Assembly (NCBI RefSeq): GCF_019464535.1 | Contig: NZ_CP080507.1 | Span: forward strand, 1,380,001-1,412,000 | Source: Horticoccus luteus | GTDB lineage: Bacteria; Verrucomicrobiota; Verrucomicrobiia; Opitutales; Opitutaceae | Direction of reading: 5' to 3' | DNA length: 32,000 nucleotides | Part shown: piece after piece, positions 4,158 to 26,793 of the stretch | Layout of the letters: every line of letters starts with the position of its first letter | Position numbering within the stretch: position 1 is the stretch's first letter | Notes under the pieces: generated by a model | What the model was told of the DNA's origin: nothing | The model's input: only the letters and a program-made list of their open reading frames with translations | The model's database searches: none | Translations under genes and position numbers: made by a program

Positions 4158-4457
4158 TTACGCGGCGTGGCCGAGGCTTTGGGCAGGGCGGATTTTAGCG
4201 GTGAGCTTTTTCTGCTTTTTGCCCAAGGCGCGAAAATCACACTCGACTTGTAGTCCGTGCCAGAACTCGGGTGTCTGGCCGAAGAAAGCGCCGAAGCGGA
4301 TGGACATGACGGGAGTGATTGAGCGGTGGCCAAGCACGATTTCGTTGATCGCGCGCGGTGACACCCCGATGGCACGGGCCATGGCGTTTTGAGAGATTCC
4401 CATCGGAGTGAGGTATTCCTCCAGCAGGATTTCACCGGGTGTGATGGGCGGGTTCAT
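4158..4457 (-). CDS. higA: HigA-family antitoxin (XRE HTH)
   Basis: [64 protein letters not shown] is the classical HigA/VapI HTH pattern. It lies 31 nt downstream of higB on the same strand. Confidence 0.85.
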
Positions 4458-4488
4458 GGCTATAACGTGGAGCGTTATGGCAGGCGCT

Positions 4489-4767
4489 TCAATGGTAATC
4501 TACGATAGCCACCTCGGCCGGGCCATTCTCCGTCCAACGGAAAACCAGGCGCCACTGGTCGTTGATCCGGATGGCGTGTAATCCGGCCCGATCACCTTTG
4601 AGGGCTTCGAGCCGGTTGCGGGGCGGCACGGCGAGGTCTTGGAGCACTCCGGCCCGGTTCATCTGAAAAAGTTTCCGCAGGGCAACCCGGGCAATCGCCG
4701 AGAAACGCCGGTTCTTTTCCTCGCGGAAAAGCTGTTCGGTGTCGTGGTCGGCGAAGGACTGAATCAT
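4489..4767 (-). CDS. higB: HigB-family toxin (RelE/ParE superfamily, 'plasmid maintenance system killer')
   Basis: 92 aa. MIQSF.D..TEQLF......[43 protein letters not shown]....P..V.IVDYH matches the HigB pattern. Toxin-first order is typical of higBA. Confidence 0.85.
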
Positions 4768-4796
4768 AAGCGGGGCGGCCCGCCGAAGAGGTCGAA

Positions 4797-4817
4797 GGGC
4801 GCGGACAAGCCGCGCCC
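4797..4817 (-). terminator. GC-rich hairpin just downstream of icd (terminator-like, no clear U-tract)
   Basis: GGGCGCGG (4797-4804) pairs with CCGCGCCC (4810-4817) across a 5-nt loop. It sits 9 nt past the icd stop codon on the minus strand. Confidence 0.35.
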
Positions 4818-4825
4818 CTACAAAA

Positions 4826-7174
<2,349 letters not shown>

Positions 7175-17586: not shown

Positions 17587-17731
17587 AGGGGAGTTTGCCG
17601 GCAGAGAGCGGACGCAGCGGAATTTGGCGCATGGTCGTGCGCAGCGGCGTGCGAGGTGAAATCAGGCGGGCCGGCGCGGGAATTTGCGTTGCGAGGTGGC
17701 CGGGGAGCGCGTTGAACGAAGGGCGTCCCGC

Positions 17732-18298
17732 ATGTTCAACCCCGAGGAACAGCCTGAGGCCGGAAGCGAGCGCCCGCGCGGTGCAGGGCGGCGCGCCTTC
17801 ACGCTGGTGGAGTTGTTGACGGTGATCGCGATCATCGCGGTGCTGGCGGGGATCACGATCGGCGCGGCGCGGGGCGTGAAGGAACGTGCGGCCCGGTCGC
17901 GGGCGAAGGGGGAACTGGCGGCGGTGTCGGTCGCGCTTGAATCCTACAAAAGGCAATATGGCGACTATCCGGAAACGAAGGATGCAGCCGCGCTGCTGCA
18001 ATGCCTGATCGGCAAACGCGGTCCGACGGGCGCGGCGATGACGGGGCGATCGATGCTCGAAACCGCGCGTTTCAGCCTGAGCGCGGACCCAACCACAGAC
18101 GTGACTGCGACGTTGCAGGATCCTTGGGCGCGCGCGTACGAGTATCATTACAAGACGGATCCGGCGGCGACGTGGCGCGCCCCGGGTTACGTGCTGTATT
18201 CCGCCGGGCCGGACGGCGCAGACGATACGCCGGCAGCGGACGGAGCACTTGATGCGACGACTGCGGCAAACGCCGATAATATTTACGCGAACCAATGA
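17732..18298 (+). CDS. gspG: GspG-like major pseudopilin (prepilin-type N-terminal methylation domain)
   Basis: RRA/FTLVELLTVIAIIAVLAGI is a class-III signal. ..RAKGELAAVSVALESYKRQYGDYPET.., LQDPWARAYEY and YVLYSAGPDGADD resemble conserved GspG blocks. The leader is about 22 aa if the start is ATG 17732. Confidence 0.75.
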   Translation: MFNPEEQPEAGSERPRGAGRRAFTLVELLTVIAIIAVLAGITIGAARGVKERAARSRAKGELAAVSVALESYKRQYGDYPETKDAAALLQCLIGKRGPTGAAMTGRSMLETARFSLSADPTTDVTATLQDPWARAYEYHYKTDPAATWRAPGYVLYSAGPDGADDTPAADGALDATTAANADNIYANQ

Positions 18299-18924
18299 GT
18301 CAGCCCGAACATCGCCGTGCCGCGTTTACGCTGATCGAATTGCTCACCGTGATCGCGATCATCGCGATTCTCGCGGGCATCCTGATTCCGACGGTGAGCG
18401 GCGTACGCGTTTCGGCAAAGAAAGCGGAGACGAAGGTGCGCTTCAGTCAATGGGCGTCGGCGATGGAGCAGTTTAAGCAGGAGTATGGTTATTATCCGGC
18501 AATCGACAGCGGCGGCACGGCCAACAAGATCAATCCGGCGCGGTTCGCGGGCGCGCTGACGGGGCGTCGACTCGACGGCACGGCGTTTGCCTCGACCACC
18601 GACCTGGATCTGGCGGGCAACAAGCGAATGATCGCGTTCTATTCGCTGACAGAACGGGAACTGAACGCAGATCGGACGGCGTTGGTGGACGCATTTGGCA
18701 ATACGGATTTTGCCGTTTACTACGACAAGGATGGCGACGGGCACATCACGACAGCGGACACGGGAGGCGCTGGACCGGTAGCGGTTGCAGGAGACGCCCA
18801 GGCCTTGTCGCCGGTCAGCACGGACGTGGATTTGACTACGACGCAGGGCGTGCGAGCGACCGTAGTATTCTATTCGGCGGGCAAGGGCGACAGTGCGAGT
18901 GACATTATTTACAGTTGGAAATGA
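18295..18924 (+). CDS. Prepilin-type N-terminal domain protein (extra G-like pseudopilin) with an EF-hand-like loop
   Basis: MSQPEHRRAA/FTLIELLTVIAIIAILAGILIP. The stretch GTGATCGCGATCATCGCG is identical at DNA level to the previous gene. Its ATG overlaps the upstream stop (ATGA at 18295-18298). Contains DKDGDGHITTAD. Confidence 0.75.
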   Translation: MSQPEHRRAAFTLIELLTVIAIIAILAGILIPTVSGVRVSAKKAETKVRFSQWASAMEQFKQEYGYYPAIDSGGTANKINPARFAGALTGRRLDGTAFASTTDLDLAGNKRMIAFYSLTERELNADRTALVDAFGNTDFAVYYDKDGDGHITTADTGGAGPVAVAGDAQALSPVSTDVDLTTTQGVRATVVFYSAGKGDSASDIIYSWK

Positions 18925-19580
18925 GGCTCCGTCGTCGAGGCTTCACATTGGTCGAATTGCTGGTGGTGATTGGCATCATTGCACTCACGGCGGGCGTCCT
19001 CGGTATGGCGTTTCGCGGGGCCAGCGCGTCGACCGGTTTACAGGCGGCGCAGAACTGTCTCGCCACCGTGCTGGCGGGGGCCCGCGGGCAGGCGGCTTTG
19101 GGGCAGGCGGAAGCGGCGGTGATCGTCGATGCCGACCCGGCGAGCGCCACGTATTTGCGGGCGGTGGGCGTGGCAACACGGCAGTCCGGAGCGACCCAAT
19201 TTGTCTTCGCGGGCGACTGGCTTGTGTTGCCAGATGGCGTCTATATCGTGCCGCCCAATTCAGCGAGCGCGGGCACCTCGTTTGAGATCGATAGTGGGGC
19301 GGGTGGCGCGTGGACGCCGGAAAGCTTTTCATCGCTGCTGGCGCCCTCGAATTCGGACGTGCGCAAGAGCGATGGCACGTCCGCCGGGATGGTGATGAGG
19401 TTGGATGCCACCATCTCGCCAGTGGGTCGGGTGACATCGGCGGGCGAGGTGCGGCTGGCAGTGGCAGCGGCGCGGCGCAGCGCAGATACAATTATTTTCG
19501 GCCACCCAGCGGCGGAGCGCGGTGTGCTGGTGAGCGCTTACGGCGCCGTGATTTTCGTCAATGATGCGAGCGCGTTTTAG
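18921..19580 (+). CDS. Minor pseudopilin, GspH/FimU-like
   Basis: MRLRRRG/FTLVELLVVIGIIALTAGVL, followed by ..LQAAQNCLATVLAGARGQAAL.., as in GspH-type proteins. There is an ATGA overlap at 18921-18924. Confidence 0.65.
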   Translation: MRLRRRGFTLVELLVVIGIIALTAGVLGMAFRGASASTGLQAAQNCLATVLAGARGQAALGQAEAAVIVDADPASATYLRAVGVATRQSGATQFVFAGDWLVLPDGVYIVPPNSASAGTSFEIDSGAGGAWTPESFSSLLAPSNSDVRKSDGTSAGMVMRLDATISPVGRVTSAGEVRLAVAAARRSADTIIFGHPAAERGVLVSAYGAVIFVNDASAF

Positions 19581-20082
19581 TCGAGGATTTACCTTGGTCG
19601 AAGTCGTGCTCGCCGTGGGCGTGTTCGCGGTGACGATCGTGGGCCTGCTGGCGTTGTTGACGCCGACGGCAAAATCGACGGCGGAAATCTCAGACTACGC
19701 GCGAGCCAGTGCGCTGGGTGATGGCATCCAAGGGGAACTGGAACGGTTGCGCGATGCAAACGTGGGCGCTGGCCGGCTCGACGCGTTGCATGACGTGGTA
19801 GCAGCAAATACACCGTTGAAGTTGGTCGCGTCGGCCGACGCGACCCGCGTATTGCGCGAGAGCGATGCCGTCGCGGCAGGATTGTCGGAGCGGGACTGGC
19901 ACTTTCTCATCGAGATTAGAGAGCAGCCCGCACCGCTCAACTATACCGCAGGCGCAGCGTTTCTGGCGCTCACCGCGACGGTGAAATGGCCGTATAAAAT
20001 TCCCAGCGGTGAGACCGACGTGACCGACGCAGACCTTACACAGGCGTCGTCGTTGATGTTAAACTTTGCGATCTCACCATGA
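19561..20082 (+). CDS. Minor pseudopilin, GspI/PilV-like
   Basis: MMRARFSRG/FTLVEVVLAVGVFAVTIVGLLAL. Small size (173 aa). Overlaps the previous gene by 20 nt. Confidence 0.6.
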   Translation: MMRARFSRGFTLVEVVLAVGVFAVTIVGLLALLTPTAKSTAEISDYARASALGDGIQGELERLRDANVGAGRLDALHDVVAANTPLKLVASADATRVLRESDAVAAGLSERDWHFLIEIREQPAPLNYTAGAAFLALTATVKWPYKIPSGETDVTDADLTQASSLMLNFAISP

Positions 20083-21044
20083 AGCAAGCGCGTTCGGCGA
20101 AGGACGGCGGTCAAGCGACGTGGGCGTTTACGCTGTTGGAATTGCTGGTGGCAATGGCAATCACGGCGGCACTGGCGGGAGTGATGTTCGTTCTCTCGAC
20201 CAACGTGTTGCGGGTGTGGAATCGGACGCAAGGCACGTTGACGACGGAGGGACAGGCGCGGTTGGCGCTCGATTTACTCACCGAGGATCTGCAGGGCGCG
20301 CTCTATCGCAATGATGGTAATGTGTGGCTGGCCGCGACCGTGCAGACTGACACCGGCGCGAGCGGGCTGTGGGATGCGACGGTGAACAATGCGAACCCGA
20401 AGGCGTCGGGAGGAGATTGGGCGAACGTTGATTTCACCGAAGCGCGTTTCGGACTGGCGGGGGTGTGGTTGCGTTTTTTCACGACGGTGACGGCAGCCGG
20501 CGCGGGCGATGCGGACATTGCGGGGCCGGCGGCGGTGAGTTACCAGATCATCCGACGAGCAAGCCCTGGCGCGGACGGAACGGAGCCGCACTACCTGCTT
20601 TACCGCAGCGAAGTGACGCCGAAGGCCACCTTTGAAACGGGTTATAATCTCGATCCGGCGACAGGAGACTATCGGACAGGGTCAGTGGTGGAGGGCGAGG
20701 CGGGCAACGTGCTCACACCGCCGATCGCACGAGTGCTGGCAGACAATGTGATCGACTTTGGGGTGCGACTTTATGCGCGCGACACGAATGGGACGCTGAC
20801 CACGATATTTCCGGCGAGCGCTGCGGCGACGTCATACTTTGCGAAATCTCCGGCGTCGGCCGTGAGCGCGGGGGATCGATTCCCCGAAGTGATCGACGTT
20901 TCCCTGCGCGTGCTCACGCCCGAAGGCGTGAGGTTGATTCAAGCGCTGGAATCTGGGCAGACCCGAGGGGATTGGTGGTCGGTGGCGCTGGCCAATTCGC
21001 GGTTGTTCACGCGGCGGGTGAAGGTGGCCGCTAAGGGGTTTTGA
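20079..21044 (+). CDS. Minor pseudopilin, GspJ/PilW-like
   Basis: ..ATWA/FTLLELLVAMAITAALAGVMF....VWNRTQGTLTTEGQARLALDLLTEDLQGAL follows the GspJ/PilW N-terminal pattern. There is an ATGA overlap at 20079-20082. Confidence 0.65.
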   Translation: MKQARSAKDGGQATWAFTLLELLVAMAITAALAGVMFVLSTNVLRVWNRTQGTLTTEGQARLALDLLTEDLQGALYRNDGNVWLAATVQTDTGASGLWDATVNNANPKASGGDWANVDFTEARFGLAGVWLRFFTTVTAAGAGDADIAGPAAVSYQIIRRASPGADGTEPHYLLYRSEVTPKATFETGYNLDPATGDYRTGSVVEGEAGNVLTPPIARVLADNVIDFGVRLYARDTNGTLTTIFPASAAATSYFAKSPASAVSAGDRFPEVIDVSLRVLTPEGVRLIQALESGQTRGDWWSVALANSRLFTRRVKVAAKGF

Positions 21045-21046
21045 AC

Positions 21047-24037
21047 ATGACGAGCGCGCTGACGTTCTCCCGACTCTATGGTGCGCGCCGACGCCAGGCG
21101 GGGTTTGCCTTGCTGCTGACGGTGACGCTCGTGGCCGCGTTGCTGGTCTTGCTCGTGAGCTTGGTGGCGTTGACGCGCGTCGAAACGAAAATTTCGGATA
21201 ACGGCGTGAAGGAGGCGCAAGCCCGGCGAAACGCGCTGATGGCGTTGAACATTGCGCTGGGCGAGTTGCAAAAATATGCCGGACCGGATCAACGCGTGAC
21301 GGGGACGGCGGACGGTTTCGGCGGGGTGGTGGGCACGCGATACTATACGGGCGTGTGGGATTCGCGCACAACAGGCACGGGGACGTTACGCTGGCTGGTC
21401 AGCGGTGGCGAGTCGGCGGCGTTCTCGCCGGCGGCTGCGCCCCTTGATGCGGTTGAGCTTGTCGGAGAACGGACGTCAGCGACCGCAGGTGAATCGGTGG
21501 TGGCCATGAAGCGGCCGATCACAGCGGTGGTCGCCGGCCAATCGAACGAAGCCGTGACCGGTGCCTACGCGTGGTGGGTGGGGGACGAAGGGGTAAAGGC
21601 CAGCCTGGCGGTGGGCGATCGCACGGAGGCAATCACCTACCCGCCATATCAATCGGGCGACGCCCGAGCACGATTGCGCCAGCAAACGGGACTGGGGGCG
21701 GCGCCGACCGATACAGCGGGTGAGACTTTAGTGGAGCCGCGCTCCGCCAGTAACGCGTCGAGCCTAGCGCGGTTGTTCGGCCGCGAGCAGATCTCTTTGT
21801 TGACGACACCGGCGACGGCACCGTTGGGACTAACCGTAACTCGGGATAACTATCACAATTGGACGGTGTTGAGTAAAGGGGTGTTGAGCGATACGGTCCG
21901 CGGTGGTTTACGGCAGGATGTGTCGTTGAACGCCAATCTGCTCGGCGAAGAGTATGCGGTGTGGGCGGATTATACGAACACGAGCGTAATGGAAGACCCG
22001 GCATCGCCTGGAACTCCGGCACCTTCACCCGGCTACGGAAGCGAACCGCTGCGTCGGCGCTATACGATAGGGCCGTTCGTCGCGTCGCAGCGACCGCGGA
22101 TTGCGCCGGTGATATCGTATTTTTATATTCTATTCGGGGTGCGCAAGCAGTCTGCGTCGGCGCCGTTTACCTTGAGTATGCGTTGGGCAGTCGCGCTATG
22201 GAATCCTTATACGAGTGCGCTCGTTCCAGAGCCGCTTTCGATCGAGGTGACTGGTTTGCCGGAGCAGGTATCGTTTTTGCACGCATCAACGCAGGCGGTG
22301 GACGCGACGGTATCCCTCCGAAACTTGTATGGCGCACCGATGAAATTGCGGTTGCCGTGGGACAGCGCGCCGACGAGCCCGGATCGCAAGTCCTGGCTTC
22401 CCGGACGCGTGTACAATTGGGTGAGTACGGGTGATCCGGCGTTCACTGCTTCGTCGACAAACCCCGGAAGATTCTATTCTCGCGATTTACCAGGCTTTGC
22501 GACGGGACTGATGACGAGCGTGGCTGGCTCGGGCGTGATCAATGGCAATTCTCCTTTGGCGGTGCGAGTCGGTGGCAAGACGACGCTCACCGTGAAGTTA
22601 TTTCGCGACAGTGACCACGCGCTCCTCGCCACTTATACCAGTCCGGAATACGACGCAGTGCCGACGACAGCAGGAACGGCGGCGTCGAACTCGACCTCGC
22701 AGCTCGGTTTTTTATTTCGACTCGCAGAGAGCTACGACACGGTGGCATCGGACCCCGGGCTGTGGCTGAAGACGACGTTGGAAGACCCGCGAGCCGAAGA
22801 CTATCCAGCGGATGGATTGCGAGCGGTGCCCAACGGAACGAATCCGGCGCTCTACGTGAATTACACGACGATCTCAGCGCCCGACCGCCTGCTTGATCGA
22901 GATATCACTTGGGGAACTTCGTTCGATGAAGACGTGCCGGTGTTTGAATTACCGCGGGCACCGCTGCTGTCGCTCGGCGCTTTGCAGCAACTCTACGTCG
23001 CGGGTGCGCGACCATTTGCGATCGGCAACTCGTGGGGACAATCGGCCCTCATCAACAATCTGCACGGCAACGAATTGTTCGACCGGTTTTTCCTCAGCGG
23101 CTTGTGCCCCGGCGTTGCGCCCGATCTGGCGGCGGGAGAACCGTTGCCGAATCAAATGCTATTACCGCTGACGGAAAAACCGGATGGCACGGCGGTATTG
23201 TTAGCGACACTGCAGGGGGCAGCCGCGCAAAGGAGCTCCGAATTTCTCCTTCAACAGGGCGCGTTTAACATCAATTCGCTAAGTGCGTCGGCGTGGCGGG
23301 CGGTGTTGCACGCAGGCCGGTTTGGCGATGGAGGAGCGTTTTCCTATCTTAATCCGAGTGCGGCGACCGGCACGGCGGGTGACGCGAGCAGGCAGACAAT
23401 CGATGCGATTGACGCGCAGTTTTTCCGGTTTCCGCAGTCCGCGCAAGAGACCTTCGCGGCCAGCGACAACTACGCGCAGTCGACCACGGGTGCCAACGGC
23501 GCCGGCGGACCGGTGATCAATACTCCTCTATTTCGGCGTGGAAAACGAGCGCTGTCGGCCACGCAAATTCGTGACCTTGCCCAGCAAGTTGTGACGCTAA
23601 ATCGACAGAAGCAGGCTGCGTCGGGTCCCTTTCGGAGCTTGGAGGAATTTCTAAATCCGAATGATCTCTTTGCAGAGGCCGACGGAACTCCCAGCAGTTT
23701 GCTGGAAAAAGCGATCCGCGATGCCGGGCTGAACGAAGCGATCGGAGAATTTAGTTCACAATGGCTCACGCAAGCCGATCTCGTGACGGCCATCGGACCG
23801 GTGTTGTCCGCCCGGAGCGACACGTTTGTGGTCCGCGCTTATGGAGAGACGCGTAATCCCGTCGGCGGGAATATTGAAGGTCGGGCATGGGCGGAGGCGG
23901 TGGTGCAACGGCTTCCCGAACCGAAGTCTCCCGCGAATCGACAGCATCCGACCGAGGCCGAATACCAAAGCCCGGGTACACTCGGCCGGCGGTTCAAAAT
24001 TTTATCATTCCGATGGCTTTCTTCCTCCGACATCTAG
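21047..24037 (+). CDS. Giant GspK/PilX-like pseudopilin-tip protein (~996 aa)
   Basis: The N-terminus RRRQAG/FALLLTVTLVAALLVLLVSLVAL has a pilin-like helix but no Glu at +5, which is a GspK hallmark. Also present are WWVGDEGVKASL (21572-21607), FNINSLSASAWRAVL (23264-23308) and SARSDTFVVRAYGE (23807-23848). Start is ATG 21047, or TTG 21041 overlapping the upstream stop. Confidence 0.6.
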   Translation: MTSALTFSRLYGARRRQAGFALLLTVTLVAALLVLLVSLVALTRVETKISDNGVKEAQARRNALMALNIALGELQKYAGPDQRVTGTADGFGGVVGTRYYTGVWDSRTTGTGTLRWLVSGGESAAFSPAAAPLDAVELVGERTSATAGESVVAMKRPITAVVAGQSNEAVTGAYAWWVGDEGVKASLAVGDRTEAITYPPYQSGDARARLRQQTGLGAAPTDTAGETLVEPRSASNASSLARLFGREQISLLTTPATAPLGLTVTRDNYHNWTVLSKGVLSDTVRGGLRQDVSLNANLLGEEYAVWADYTNTSVMEDPASPGTPAPSPGYGSEPLRRRYTIGPFVASQRPRIAPVISYFYILFGVRKQSASAPFTLSMRWAVALWNPYTSALVPEPLSIEVTGLPEQVSFLHASTQAVDATVSLRNLYGAPMKLRLPWDSAPTSPDRKSWLPGRVYNWVSTGDPAFTASSTNPGRFYSRDLPGFATGLMTSVAGSGVINGNSPLAVRVGGKTTLTVKLFRDSDHALLATYTSPEYDAVPTTAGTAASNSTSQLGFLFRLAESYDTVASDPGLWLKTTLEDPRAEDYPADGLRAVPNGTNPALYVNYTTISAPDRLLDRDITWGTSFDEDVPVFELPRAPLLSLGALQQLYVAGARPFAIGNSWGQSALINNLHGNELFDRFFLSGLCPGVAPDLAAGEPLPNQMLLPLTEKPDGTAVLLATLQGAAAQRSSEFLLQQGAFNINSLSASAWRAVLHAGRFGDGGAFSYLNPSAATGTAGDASRQTIDAIDAQFFRFPQSAQETFAASDNYAQSTTGANGAGGPVINTPLFRRGKRALSATQIRDLAQQVVTLNRQKQAASGPFRSLEEFLNPNDLFAEADGTPSSLLEKAIRDAGLNEAIGEFSSQWLTQADLVTAIGPVLSARSDTFVVRAYGETRNPVGGNIEGRAWAEAVVQRLPEPKSPANRQHPTEAEYQSPGTLGRRFKILSFRWLSSSDI

Positions 24038-24708
24038 CGTTGCGCGGCAGTCTATTTTTGGCCGTAGCGGTGGCCGCGATCGCGCAGCCGGCCCGGCCGC
24101 GCGAACTCGAGGTTCATTTTACTGTGTTTGCGCCGACGTTCGTGAGTGACCTTGCGTATCGGATCAAAACTGAACGGGCGGTGAAACTGGTGCCTTTGAC
24201 GTTCTTCCCCACGGCGCGCTCGCCGGTGTATGCGTATCGAGGACCGGCACCGTTGGAGATCGTGGATGAGAAGTCGGGTGAAGTAGTGGCGTTGGCAGAT
24301 GTGCCGCCAAATATTTCGGAGCCCTTGATCATCTTGTTTCCCCTAACTCCAGCGCCGACCAAAGGAACACGATTTCGCGTTTACGTGCACGATGACGCGA
24401 AATCCAAGCACGGACCAGGAGGCTTGGGTGTTCTGAATTTCTCGAACCTTTCGCTAGATGGGACAGTGGATCGGCAGGCGGTGCAATTCGGGAACGGATT
24501 CTACGGCCCCTATAACGTGGGAGCGGTAGCGAAGGTGATGCTGCGCACCCGATTTCGCGGACGCAGCCTGCAAACCTACGCCGACAGCATTCACCTCGGC
24601 CGCGACGGCCGGGCGCTCCTTCTACTGTTGCCGCCGTTTTATCGCGGCTCGTTGGAAGTGCAGACGCGGATATTGTTGGACGAGGTGACGCATCCGGACT
24701 CGCGTTAG
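24013..24708 (+). CDS. Hypothetical secreted protein (231 aa), last gene of the pseudopilin operon
   Basis: Signal peptide MAFFLRHLALRGSLFLAVAVAAIAQP. The composition looks beta-rich and no family is recognised. ATG 24013 overlaps the upstream gene by 25 nt. Confidence 0.55.
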   Translation: MAFFLRHLALRGSLFLAVAVAAIAQPARPRELEVHFTVFAPTFVSDLAYRIKTERAVKLVPLTFFPTARSPVYAYRGPAPLEIVDEKSGEVVALADVPPNISEPLIILFPLTPAPTKGTRFRVYVHDDAKSKHGPGGLGVLNFSNLSLDGTVDRQAVQFGNGFYGPYNVGAVAKVMLRTRFRGRSLQTYADSIHLGRDGRALLLLLPPFYRGSLEVQTRILLDEVTHPDSR

Positions 24709-24782
24709 GCTGGTCTAGCGAGCGCCGGGGTTCTGGGAAGCGAATAGCTCACGCGTCAATAGTTCGGCGGAAGTGGTAACAT

Positions 24783-25928
24783 CTACCCCAGCAGCACCTG
24801 CCATTGGTTTTCGCGGGCGGAGCGGGCGGCTTTCAGGGCGCCGAGGGCGACGTAGCGTTTATAATCCTGGCCGGCGATTTTCACTTTCGGTGATTCATAT
24901 CCGTCGTCGGCGAGGCGTTTTTGCAGCACGGTGTCGATGCCTTTGATCTGCGATCCGCCGCCGGTGATAATGATGTTTTGCAGCAGCGGCACGACCGAAT
25001 CCGAGGAGGCGCGTTGGATCAGCGTCGTGAGCGCAGGATAGATTTTATCGAGCAGGGCGTTGGCGGCGCGCCCGATGACGTCACCGAGTTCCAGCGTATG
25101 GCCTTTGCCGCCCATGATGACTTTGACGTCGATGGGCTTGCGGGTCGGGCCGACGTAGGCGTGCGCCTCTTTGATTTCGCGCACTTTCAAGCGGGAAAGG
25201 CCGTTGTTGGGATAGGTGCGATCGAGTTCATCGTGCATGAGGGCGTCGATCGCGTCGCCGGCGAAAGCGATGCTGACCTGATCGTCGCTCGTGGGAAAAT
25301 AGCCTTGGACGAGGCAGATGTCGGTGGTGCCGCCGCCGATGTCGATGAAGAGCGAATTGACGACCGGATCGAGGTAACCGGGCTGGCCGACGCGGGCGTC
25401 GTCGCGGTAACCGAGTGCGGCGAGAAACGGTTCCGGGATCAGGAGGATGCGGCTGAAGATGCCTTGGGCGATGCGGCGGATTTCTTCGCGGGCAGGTTCT
25501 TCGGCGTTGGCGGGCACGCCGACAACCGCGCGGATTTCAGCGGTGCCGCTCGGGTCGACGAGGGTGCGGATGTGGTGGAAGAAATCGCGGGCGGCTTCCT
25601 CGCGGGTGATGACGCCGCTTTCGAGCGGCGTGACGAGGCGGGCGTGCAATTGGTTGCGCAAAGCATCCTCGCCGAAGAGCACGCGGTGGTTGCCGGTGAT
25701 GATGCCGTCGACGATGCCTTCTTTGACGTAGCCGACGATCGAGGGGATGACTTTGCTGACAAGAATGTCGTTGGTGCCCGGAGCACCCGCGAGCACGCAC
25801 GATTTGTTGGTGCCGAGATCGAAGCCGACGAGGATCGTCTTGCCGCCGGCGCGCGAAGGCACGGTGGATGGCGTGGGGGCGGGCGTGTGGGCCGTGAGCG
25901 GGCGTTCAGGAGTGGAGACGGAGGACAT
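24783..25928 (-). CDS. MamK-family actin-like ATPase
   Basis: Actin-fold motifs are present: GFDLGTNKS (phosphate 1), VVGVPANAEE, IPEPFLAALGY, FIDIGGGTTDICLV (phosphate 2) and IIITGGGSQIKGI (adenosine). EPF, TTDIC, SIVGYVKE and the C-terminal ..ALGALKAA....QWQVL resemble MamK as I remember it more than MreB does. There is a ~30-aa Pro/Thr-rich N-terminal extension. Confidence 0.75.
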   Translation of the reverse strand: MSSVSTPERPLTAHTPAPTPSTVPSRAGGKTILVGFDLGTNKSCVLAGAPGTNDILVSKVIPSIVGYVKEGIVDGIITGNHRVLFGEDALRNQLHARLVTPLESGVITREEAARDFFHHIRTLVDPSGTAEIRAVVGVPANAEEPAREEIRRIAQGIFSRILLIPEPFLAALGYRDDARVGQPGYLDPVVNSLFIDIGGGTTDICLVQGYFPTSDDQVSIAFAGDAIDALMHDELDRTYPNNGLSRLKVREIKEAHAYVGPTRKPIDVKVIMGGKGHTLELGDVIGRAANALLDKIYPALTTLIQRASSDSVVPLLQNIIITGGGSQIKGIDTVLQKRLADDGYESPKVKIAGQDYKRYVALGALKAARSARENQWQVLLG

Positions 25929-25943
25929 AGGAATTTAAACGGG

Positions 25944-26315
25944 TTAAGAGGTCCGCGCGGCGCGTTGGCCGGCGAGCATGCTGTCGATCATGTCGGCGAT
26001 GTTAATGTCGCCGCCTACCGGACGGGCGGGTGGCGGCGGCGGAGATGAAGCGGGGACCAAAGGCTGGGAGGGAGCGGCGGGGAGGCGGGCGGCAACCAAG
26101 TCGGCGACCACGCTCGCGGTGGCGAGGCGTTCGTCTTCGGTGTGCTGCAGCGCGGCCAGTTCGTCGTCTTCACCGCCGTGTGCGTGCGCGGCGGCGATGG
26201 CCGGCGTCCATGCGGTGTGTTCGAGGCGCGCTGCTTCGCTGGCGCGTCCGAGCAGGCGGAGCATCACCATGCGCCGGTAGATCAAAATAGCATCCGCCCA
26301 CGGCGACGCGACCAT
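25944..26315 (-). CDS. Hypothetical small acidic/proline-rich protein (123 aa; 133 aa if TTG 26345 is used)
   Basis: GC-rich third positions support coding. It has an acidic patch (HGGEDDELAALQHTEDERL), a proline run (PASSPPPPPARP) and a C-terminal amphipathic segment (DINIADMIDSMLAGQ). The stop is 15 nt before the actin-like gene start. Confidence 0.5.
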   Translation of the reverse strand: MVASPWADAILIYRRMVMLRLLGRASEAARLEHTAWTPAIAAAHAHGGEDDELAALQHTEDERLATASVVADLVAARLPAAPSQPLVPASSPPPPPARPVGGDINIADMIDSMLAGQRAARTS

Positions 26316-26425
26316 CGGGCAGAGCGAAGACACAGATTCGCTCAAGATGAGGCGCTAGACCGAGCAGGCGCGGGCGGGTTCGCGATTTTCTGCGGCGCGG
26401 CGCGGGGTTTTCCGTAAGCTCTTTG

Positions 26426-26737
26426 TCAGAGCGGTCGTCGCAAAAAATAAAAAATCAACAGGGCGGCGGCGAGTCCGAGGAGGGCGAGGGCGAAATAGAG
26501 AAAGCAGCCGCGGCGGACGGTGCGGTGGACGACTTGAGGGTCGATGGTATCTTGTTCGAATGCGTCGGCGGGTTGACCGGTGGTCAAATCGACGCCGGGA
26601 GACGCGGGCGAGGAAACTTGGGCGGCGGCGTGGGCGCTGGCGGCGGCGGCGGCGATTTCGCGTTCCAAGCGGGCGAGATGTTCCTGCGCCAACTCGCGCT
26701 GGCGGAGTAGTTCGGAGAGTCGGTCGGGCGTCGGCAC
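26426..26737 (-). CDS. Hypothetical tail-anchored coiled-coil membrane protein (103 aa, GTG start)
   Basis: The N-terminus is heptad-like (LSELLRQRELAQEHLARLEREIAAAAA), followed by a Pro/Ser linker and a single C-terminal TM (CFLYFALALLGLAAALLIFYFL). Third positions are GC-rich. There is no in-frame ATG. Confidence 0.5.
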   Translation of the reverse strand: MPTPDRLSELLRQRELAQEHLARLEREIAAAAASAHAAAQVSSPASPGVDLTTGQPADAFEQDTIDPQVVHRTVRRGCFLYFALALLGLAAALLIFYFLRRPL

Positions 26738-26760: not shown

Positions 26761-26793
26761 CAATAAAAAACGCAGCCCAGAACGGGCTGCGTT
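26761..26793 (-). terminator. Rho-independent terminator of the rplU-rpmA operon
   Basis: On the minus strand, AACGCAGCCC (26793-26784) pairs with GGGCTGCGTT (26778-26769) across a 5-nt loop and is followed by TTTTTTATTG. It starts 27 nt after the rpmA stop. Confidence 0.8.

Follow-up and report, generated by a model that had tools for sequence, protein, structure and literature searches.

A BeeR actin locus of Horticoccus luteus and p133, a putative partner protein encoded directly upstream

The window analysed here, 32,000 nucleotides of Horticoccus luteus (contig NZ_CP080507.1, positions 1,380,001 to 1,412,000), carries on its minus strand three consecutive open reading frames (ORFs): a gene for an actin-like protein of 381 amino acids (aa) (24783..25928, ATG start) and, upstream of it, two small genes, here called p133 (25944..26315) and p103 (26426..26737). 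An earlier note, made from the letters of this DNA alone, had described these three ORFs, and all are present with the positions and lengths that it gave. The locus raises the question of what a MamK-like actin and two small neighbours represent in a stretch with no magnetosome genes: to which family the actin belongs, and whether the small proteins are its partners. On sequence grounds the 381-aa protein is a BeeR-family actin-like ATPase. The locus probably combines this BeeR with a dedicated and previously undescribed partner, p133, and a role of p133 as adaptor or regulator is proposed at somewhat better than even confidence.

Identity of the actin-like protein

The 381-aa protein scores 607.9 bits against the NCBIfam equivalog model for BeeR (NF053558, cut-off 530), with residues 32-380 spanning positions 1-349 of the 349 in the profile. 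Against the BeeR filament of Opitutus terrae in the PDB (8R2N) the score is 631 bits (E 4.8e-189), residues 8-381 being aligned with 7-386. The Pfam families MreB_Mbl (residues 34-339, E 9e-18) and Actin are matched as well, in agreement with the actin fold that had been read from the motifs. Bergeron et al. (PNAS 2025) introduced BeeR as the sister family of MamK, with 25-30% identity, that occurs in non-magnetotactic Verrucomicrobiota and forms with ATP a three-stranded tube of ~80 Å; its hallmark is a disordered N-terminal tail of 30-50 aa, with the function reported as unknown (PMC11929497). The discussion of the preprint states that expression and function were not yet investigated. The host agrees with this distribution, H. 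luteus being a member of the Opitutaceae (Verrucomicrobiota).

Residues 1-31 of the window protein form a low-complexity tail rich in P, T, S and A (MSSVSTPERPLTAHTPAPTPSTVPSRAGGKT), which precedes the first conserved block, and the actin core takes up residues 32-381. The tail aligns poorly with O. terrae BeeR and the core aligns gap-free; from its composition only, the 31-aa tail is predicted to be disordered, as is typical of the family. Twelve residues named in PMC11929497 as cross-strand contacts were compared (R157, T307, Q310, E149, E153, N246, R242, I277, L284 and L385 among them); nine are identical, and I277 is conservatively replaced by M. Two residues named in the paper, Arg252 and Asn380, do not match the 8R2N chain (His252 and Gln380 in the alignment); the neighbouring R255 and N379 match and are conserved, and a numbering slip in the paper is the probable reason. 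Given the identity to 8R2N, the window BeeR would be expected to assemble in an ATP-dependent manner into the same three-stranded tubular filament of ~80 Å. Nothing material distinguishes the actin itself from O. terrae BeeR. The two share the equivalog model, 74% identity over the full length (tblastn, O. terrae locus), the N-terminal tail, the interface residues, an Opitutaceae host and the arrangement rpmA-p103-p133-beeR; what is new here is the p133 and p103 families.

Among the other characterised actin families, MamK comes closest. The earlier note had assigned the protein to it after a block-by-block comparison, and the likeness is genuine: the alignment to the MamK structure 5JYG (116 bits, against at most 45 bits for MreB in the PDB) pairs SIVGYVKE with SVVGYPKD, DIGGGTTDIC with DIGAGTTDIC and LQNIIITGGGSQIKGI with LQNIVFAGGGSRIRGL. 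The preference for MamK over MreB was therefore right and the family label one step off, since the protein reaches 209.9 bits on the NCBIfam MamK model (NF040964, cut-off 400) and passes the BeeR model. MamK was also rejected on context: no mam or mms gene is found in the rest of the 32-kb window, as had been noted, and no magnetosome gene among the conserved neighbours of 77 related loci. The BeeR filament is three-stranded, whereas that of MamK is two-stranded, and MamK-like actins without magnetosomes were already in the literature as BeeR (PMC11929497).

p133: linkage to BeeR and architecture

The sample comprised 77 BeeR loci, one genome per species, all from Opitutaceae or Verrucomicrobiota assemblies and one of them labelled Gammaproteobacteria; single loci are cited below by L numbers. 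Homologues of p133 and p103 were detected with iterative profiles built from same-strand ORFs upstream of BeeR. Counts for p133 refer to the 73 loci with >600 bp upstream and those for p103 to the 64 loci with >1.6 kb upstream. A p133 homologue lies immediately upstream of BeeR in 69/73 loci, always in single copy and always in the same position. Between the p133 stop and the BeeR start there are 47 bp in the median (range -11 to 103), and no further gene lies there in any locus; in the window the two ORFs share one reading frame. The pair is kept in nine loci that have neither rpmA nor p103 nearby. Two loci (L015, 2022-3329; L044, ~4279-5436) have foreign genes between p103 and p133, and no insertion separates p133 from BeeR. 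The linkage is also seen from the other side: a scan of metagenomes that started from the C-terminal motif of p133 alone, with search patterns drawn from a narrow p133 alignment (the broad one was too diverse), yielded 13 contigs, and BeeR follows directly downstream in 12/12 of those with room for it. The genome from which the characterised BeeR was taken, O. terrae PB90-1, has the order rplU-rpmA-p103-p133-beeR, with p103 of 147 aa and p133 of 153 aa. Neither the BeeR paper (PMC11929497) nor its preprint mentions genomic context, partner proteins or the p133 and p103 neighbours, and a literature search of the searchable library found no follow-up work on BeeR.

Both small genes are under purifying selection, as judged from the ratio of nonsynonymous to synonymous substitution rates (dN/dS) in the closest genome pairs (p133 0.22-0.67, p103 0.22-0.45, BeeR 0.035-0.17). 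They evolve several times faster than BeeR, at ~30-45% protein identity where BeeR has ~75%; p133 falls to ~30% where BeeR holds ~75%, but hardly varies in its C-terminal motif. Unlike p133, the downstream neighbours of BeeR in the window are not conserved in relatives. In the sampled genomes the conserved core is a mobile two-gene p133-beeR cassette, with p103 as a frequent, separable third member.

Two loci with insertions deserve a separate remark. The insert of L015 includes a gene for a 435-aa exported protein, and in both L015 and L044 p103 still adjoins rpmA and p133 still adjoins beeR. L015 (JADZEE010000115.1) is a typical Opitutaceae rplU-rpmA-p103-p133-beeR block within a metagenome-assembled genome named 'Gammaproteobacteria bacterium', probably through an error of binning or labelling.

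The p133 gene of the window has an ATG at 26315, which an independent public gene call (P0014, L094) uses as the start and which gives a product of 123 aa; a TTG at 26345 would give an alternative long form of 133 aa (25944-26345, minus strand). The family is large and its members are small. When 1.84 billion cluster representatives were searched exhaustively with the profile, 484 clusters (50% identity) matched, 349 of them at E <=1e-10, and the 150 best matches listed are all of 104-273 aa. Searches with p133 gave no Pfam, NCBIfam or PDB sequence relative and nothing consistent among the matches; members of both small families are named 'hypothetical protein' in their source records. A Foldseek search of the p133 model against the PDB gave nothing below E=1, with only generic helical bundles at E>3. 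By these searches p133 and p103 are two small protein families without an annotated domain, and for neither was similarity to any annotated family detected.

The AlphaFold2 (AF2) model of p133, computed from an alignment of 18 sequences and numbered here by the 123-aa form, has a mean predicted local distance difference test (pLDDT) score of 84. Residues 5-77 (26085..26303, minus strand) are predicted to form a three-helix bundle (helices 5-21, 25-45 and 50-77; block-mean pLDDT 86-96), which is acidic, with a family median net charge of -3.7. It is followed by a proline-rich, disordered linker (26001..26084, minus strand; pLDDT 60-75, no secondary structure), which measures 19-68 aa across the family and contains ~22% Pro. 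The protein had been called acidic and proline-rich, and this holds (isoelectric point 5.2, Pro-rich stretch LPAAPSQPLVPASSPPPPPARP). The C-terminus carries an acidic amphipathic helix, IADMIDSMLAGQ (25965..26000, minus strand; AF2 helix 106-122), which is the proposed BeeR-binding peptide. Its family motif is [IV][AT]D[LF][IL]D[GE]M[LI]xQ[ED] (IADxIDxMLxQE), and the conservation of p133 is densest there, 4 of the 10 invariant or nearly invariant columns falling within 12 residues. Position 17 of p133 (window 26265-26267) is Cys in 66/71 members (RRIC-LLR), and only the window protein has Val (RRMVMLR).

p103 and the surroundings of the locus

The p103 gene has a GTG start, which agrees with the MxDRL start of its homologues, and its 103-aa product is 100% identical to K0B96_05760 of Horticoccus luteus. 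The AF2 model begins with a conserved, coiled-coil-like helix (residues 4-41; 26615..26728, minus strand; block-mean pLDDT up to 95) with the consensus MxDRLxELRRQRALxQEHLAWLDREIA, continues with a disordered stretch at 42-66 and ends with a helix at 67-100. Within the latter lies the C-terminal transmembrane (TM) segment CFLYFALALLGLAAALLIF (residues 78-96; 26450..26506, minus strand), with a Kyte-Doolittle mean of 2.59 over 19 residues. AF2 and the hydropathy scale thus agree with the description of p103 as an N-terminal coiled-coil-like helix with a C-terminal hydrophobic segment. The segment is found in all 48 members of the family at a score of at least 1.96 and is followed by 3-30 residues; the N-terminus has no signal peptide-like features. 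These predictions suggest that p103 is anchored in the membrane by its tail, with the coiled-coil helix in the cytoplasm. It has no Pfam or NCBIfam relative, and its sole PDB matches are designed antiparallel coiled coils (E 3e-7 with the p103 profile), which reflect a generic heptad pattern. An almost invariant Cys (RxGC) stands at the cytoplasmic edge of the TM helix. A link between p133 C17 and p103 C78, both nearly invariant, was considered and dropped, as the window p133 has Val at that position.

A p103 homologue is present in 42/64 BeeR loci, normally between rpmA and p133, and the trio is also found without rplU-rpmA in at least two contexts (L014; L070 and L073). The p133-BeeR loci without p103 show no consistent substitute membrane protein, and no p103 copy exists elsewhere in them within ~6 kb on either side. 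Three p103 genes (L096:3001-3378, L098:256-636 and L097:3001-3330; E 5e-26 to 1.5e-36) have neither p133 nor BeeR within 3 kb. The p103 of L096 and L098 lies between rpmA and a convergent pheA-scpB, as though the p133-beeR cassette had been excised. Many relatives have, immediately before rplU, a gene whose product combines an N-terminal TM helix with a long coiled coil rich in Ala, Glu and Arg (L034:978-1682, L053:4135-4932, L066:4221-4925 and L076:3753-4433). Unannotated genes of 187-232 aa before rplU in L092, L095 and L099 are counted with it. The gene occurs also in the clade without p103 and p133, and the window lacks it.

The ribosomal protein genes rpmA (L27; 26820..27059) and rplU (L21; 27072..27386), both recognised by translation on the minus strand, form the conserved upstream context and are placed outside the system. 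L27 is encoded upstream of BeeR in 51/64 loci, and Pfam L21p is matched at the equivalent position in the O. terrae and metagenome loci. The compact three-gene unit of the earlier note has its ORFs as described and is not alone on its strand, since rplU-rpmA lies 82 bp upstream of it. Directly after rpmA, at the upstream boundary of the trio, there is a strong hairpin resembling an intrinsic terminator (26769..26793, minus strand, T-run to ~26762), with an 11-bp stem that has seven G-C pairs and is followed by TTTTATT. A similar hairpin with a T-run follows rpmA in at least 36/51 related loci, and the differing stem sequences suggest that it is the structure that is conserved. Because this hairpin lies between rpmA and p103, the trio is probably transcribed apart from the ribosomal genes. 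The minus strand shows no terminator-like site between p103 and p133; a sigma-70-type promoter was likewise not detected, and Rfam gave zero matches in the window.

Further upstream on the minus strand are genes for a PfkB kinase and an MFS transporter. The remaining genes of the window encode isocitrate dehydrogenase, an FGGY kinase, an amine oxidase, an alpha-galactosidase and PriA. On the plus strand, and convergent with beeR, lies a pseudopilin cassette (window 17684-24708). It includes two GspG-like genes, one GspH-like gene and genes for Verru_Chthon A-D-like proteins, one of them of 998 aa, followed by a gene for a 273-aa unknown protein. Across the 77 related loci, none of its genes adjoins BeeR. 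Most relatives (L036, L095, L099 and ~39 other loci) have pheA (CM_2/PDT/ACT) and scpB next downstream of beeR, in convergent orientation; at window 23887-24782 the pseudopilin cassette replaces pheA-scpB, which puts a rearrangement breakpoint right after beeR.

Proposed mechanism, alternatives and significance

From the linkage and conservation described above it is reasonably probable that p133 is a direct partner of BeeR, acting as adaptor or regulator. In the proposed mechanism the C-terminal amphipathic helix of p133, carried on its flexible Pro-rich tether, would dock onto a conserved surface of BeeR. This is suggested because a near-invariant peptide in a fast-evolving protein fits a very conserved binding surface. 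The cleft between actin subdomains Ia and IIa is used by ParR- or WH2-type helices in other actins, and by analogy the hydrophobic cleft between subdomains Ia and IIa of BeeR would be the likeliest docking site. The acidic three-helix bundle of p133 would engage a second partner, for which the cytoplasmic helix of p103 is the most obvious candidate. p103 would then tether BeeR filaments to the cytoplasmic membrane. This step is the weaker one, because p103 and the p133-BeeR pair are found apart. The three-part model of membrane anchor (p103), adaptor (p133) and filament (BeeR) is accordingly rated as doubtful, the low rating being due to the separability of p103 in both directions. That the three proteins form a self-contained, membrane-tethered and Opitutaceae-specific cytoskeletal machine, in which p103 recruits the p133 bundle and the p133 helix captures or nucleates a rigid BeeR tube at the membrane, is about equally doubtful.

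Several observations weigh against these proposals. Four loci have BeeR and no detectable p133 nearby (the clade L034/L053/L066, plus L065), and the conserved residues of BeeR are almost all retained there, so that an adjacent p133 gene may be dispensable for BeeR function. The sampled genomes are fairly close relatives (BeeR 64-87% identical), and with BeeR at least 64% identical across the sample, part of the linkage is due to shared ancestry. The p133 C-terminal helix could fold back on its own bundle instead of binding BeeR. As to p103, it is missing from 22/64 BeeR loci and, on the BeeR tree, was lost from the locus at least five times in separate clades. Among eight p103-seeded contigs five are canonical and three (L096, L097 and L098) are without p133 or BeeR; because p103 occurs there without the pair, its adjacency could, on this pattern of gene order, be inherited synteny with rpmA. 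A search for a relaxed p133-binding surface on the BeeR of the p133-less loci found only scattered conservative changes, and this idea was rejected. The three genes had been grouped as one operon, and the grouping stands for p133, a near-obligate neighbour of BeeR, and in part for p103, which is lacking from about a third of BeeR loci and also occurs apart. The earlier note had itself named as a danger that the small ORFs might be unconserved or non-coding. For p133 this is rejected by the linkage in both directions and the purifying selection; p103 is likewise conserved and coding, with its absence from those 22 loci and its occurrence without p133-BeeR counting on the other side.

The alternative that survives best is that p133 mainly regulates BeeR assembly, as nucleator, capper, monomer-sequestering factor or bundling modulator, and that p103 is functionally unrelated. 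WH2 motifs and the ParR C-terminus are peptides that bind the actin barbed-end cleft, and the lone conserved amphipathic helix of p133 on its flexible tether resembles such cleft-binding, dynamics-altering peptides. The tight p133-BeeR linkage and the separability of p103 speak for this alternative too, and the dynamics of MamK, in the sister family, are altered by small partners according to the abstract of PMC13170167. The conserved and confidently folded three-helix bundle of p133 argues against it, as it implies a second binding function. This alternative is compatible with the data and with the adaptor model; as the principal explanation it is held to be unlikely.

Considerably less probable is that the small ORFs are merely syntenic neighbours inherited within the Opitutaceae, with no functional tie to BeeR. 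The relatedness of the genomes, the broad conservation of the block MFS-PfkB-rplU-rpmA-p103-p133-beeR and the persistence of p103 beside rpmA where p133-BeeR is absent would all be explained in this way. Mere synteny does not agree, however, with p133 staying with BeeR in the nine relocated loci, with the lack of any insertion between the two, with the outcome of the reverse search, or with the contrast between p133 and the non-conserved downstream neighbours of BeeR in the window. It is rejected for p133 and is viable for p103.

It is very improbable that the locus encodes a chromosomal counterpart of ParMRC for DNA segregation, in which p133 would bind a centromere as ParR does. The resemblance of BeeR and p133 to ParM-ParR-parC and to Alp7A/AlfA is by analogy only: a filament and a small adaptor whose C-terminal helix could bind it. 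The convergent scpB just downstream of BeeR in most relatives would also suit a segregation role, but it is convergent and absent from the window. The N-terminal domain of p133 is an acidic, long three-helix bundle, not a ribbon-helix-helix or helix-turn-helix fold and thus not of a DNA-binding type, and p133 is encoded upstream of the actin and not downstream, the reverse of the parMR order. No iteron- or centromere-like repeats were found around the trio, only GC-rich chance matches. The BeeR locus is chromosomal, and a search of 72,556 plasmids found no homologue of BeeR or p133. Membership was therefore rejected, there being no ParM family among the matches of the actin, which, as had been anticipated, can be assigned neither to ParM nor to MreB.

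Least credible of all is an MreB-type cell-shape actin, the name under which many database homologues are filed and one that the Pfam MreB_Mbl match would allow, for the NCBIfam MreB models score far below their cut-offs (NF010539, 48.4 bits vs 293; TIGR00904, 43.8 vs 365.75), PDB MreB entries give <=45 bits vs 631 for BeeR, no mreC or mreD lies nearby and the BeeR structure shows a three-stranded filament, which MreB does not form (PMC11929497). MreB is refuted as the family of this protein; BeeR may still act in cell shape. Most public records call BeeR homologues 'rod shape-determining protein MreB' despite scores far under the MreB cut-offs, which looks, from these scores, like systematic misannotation.

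Compared with other systems, the locus is a variant of a known theme, a bacterial actin filament with dedicated adaptors. The proposed scheme has its concept in common with MamK and its partners (MamJ/LimJ, MamY, McaA/McaB), where small proteins, acidic or membrane-bound, couple an actin filament to membranes; by sequence p133 and p103 are not MamJ-like. With the FtsZ C-terminal peptide and FtsA, and with PilM and the PilN N-terminal peptide, it would share the design of a short conserved peptide on a disordered linker that docks on an actin fold, and of a bitopic membrane protein as anchor. There is no sequence relationship to these, and the differences are that the p133 peptide is carried on a separate three-helix-bundle protein and that p103 is predicted to be tail-anchored.

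The BeeR family itself was known; what is new are the two small families, p133 and p103, with their linkage to BeeR. The analysis defines these two small families and corrects the widespread 'MreB' annotation of BeeR genes. If the membrane-tethered machine proved true, it would be a positioning or shape system built of parts unrelated to known actin partners, and would reveal the cellular role of BeeR. BeeR is a structurally unusual bacterial actin, and its link to p133 gives a first experimental handle on the function of the filament.

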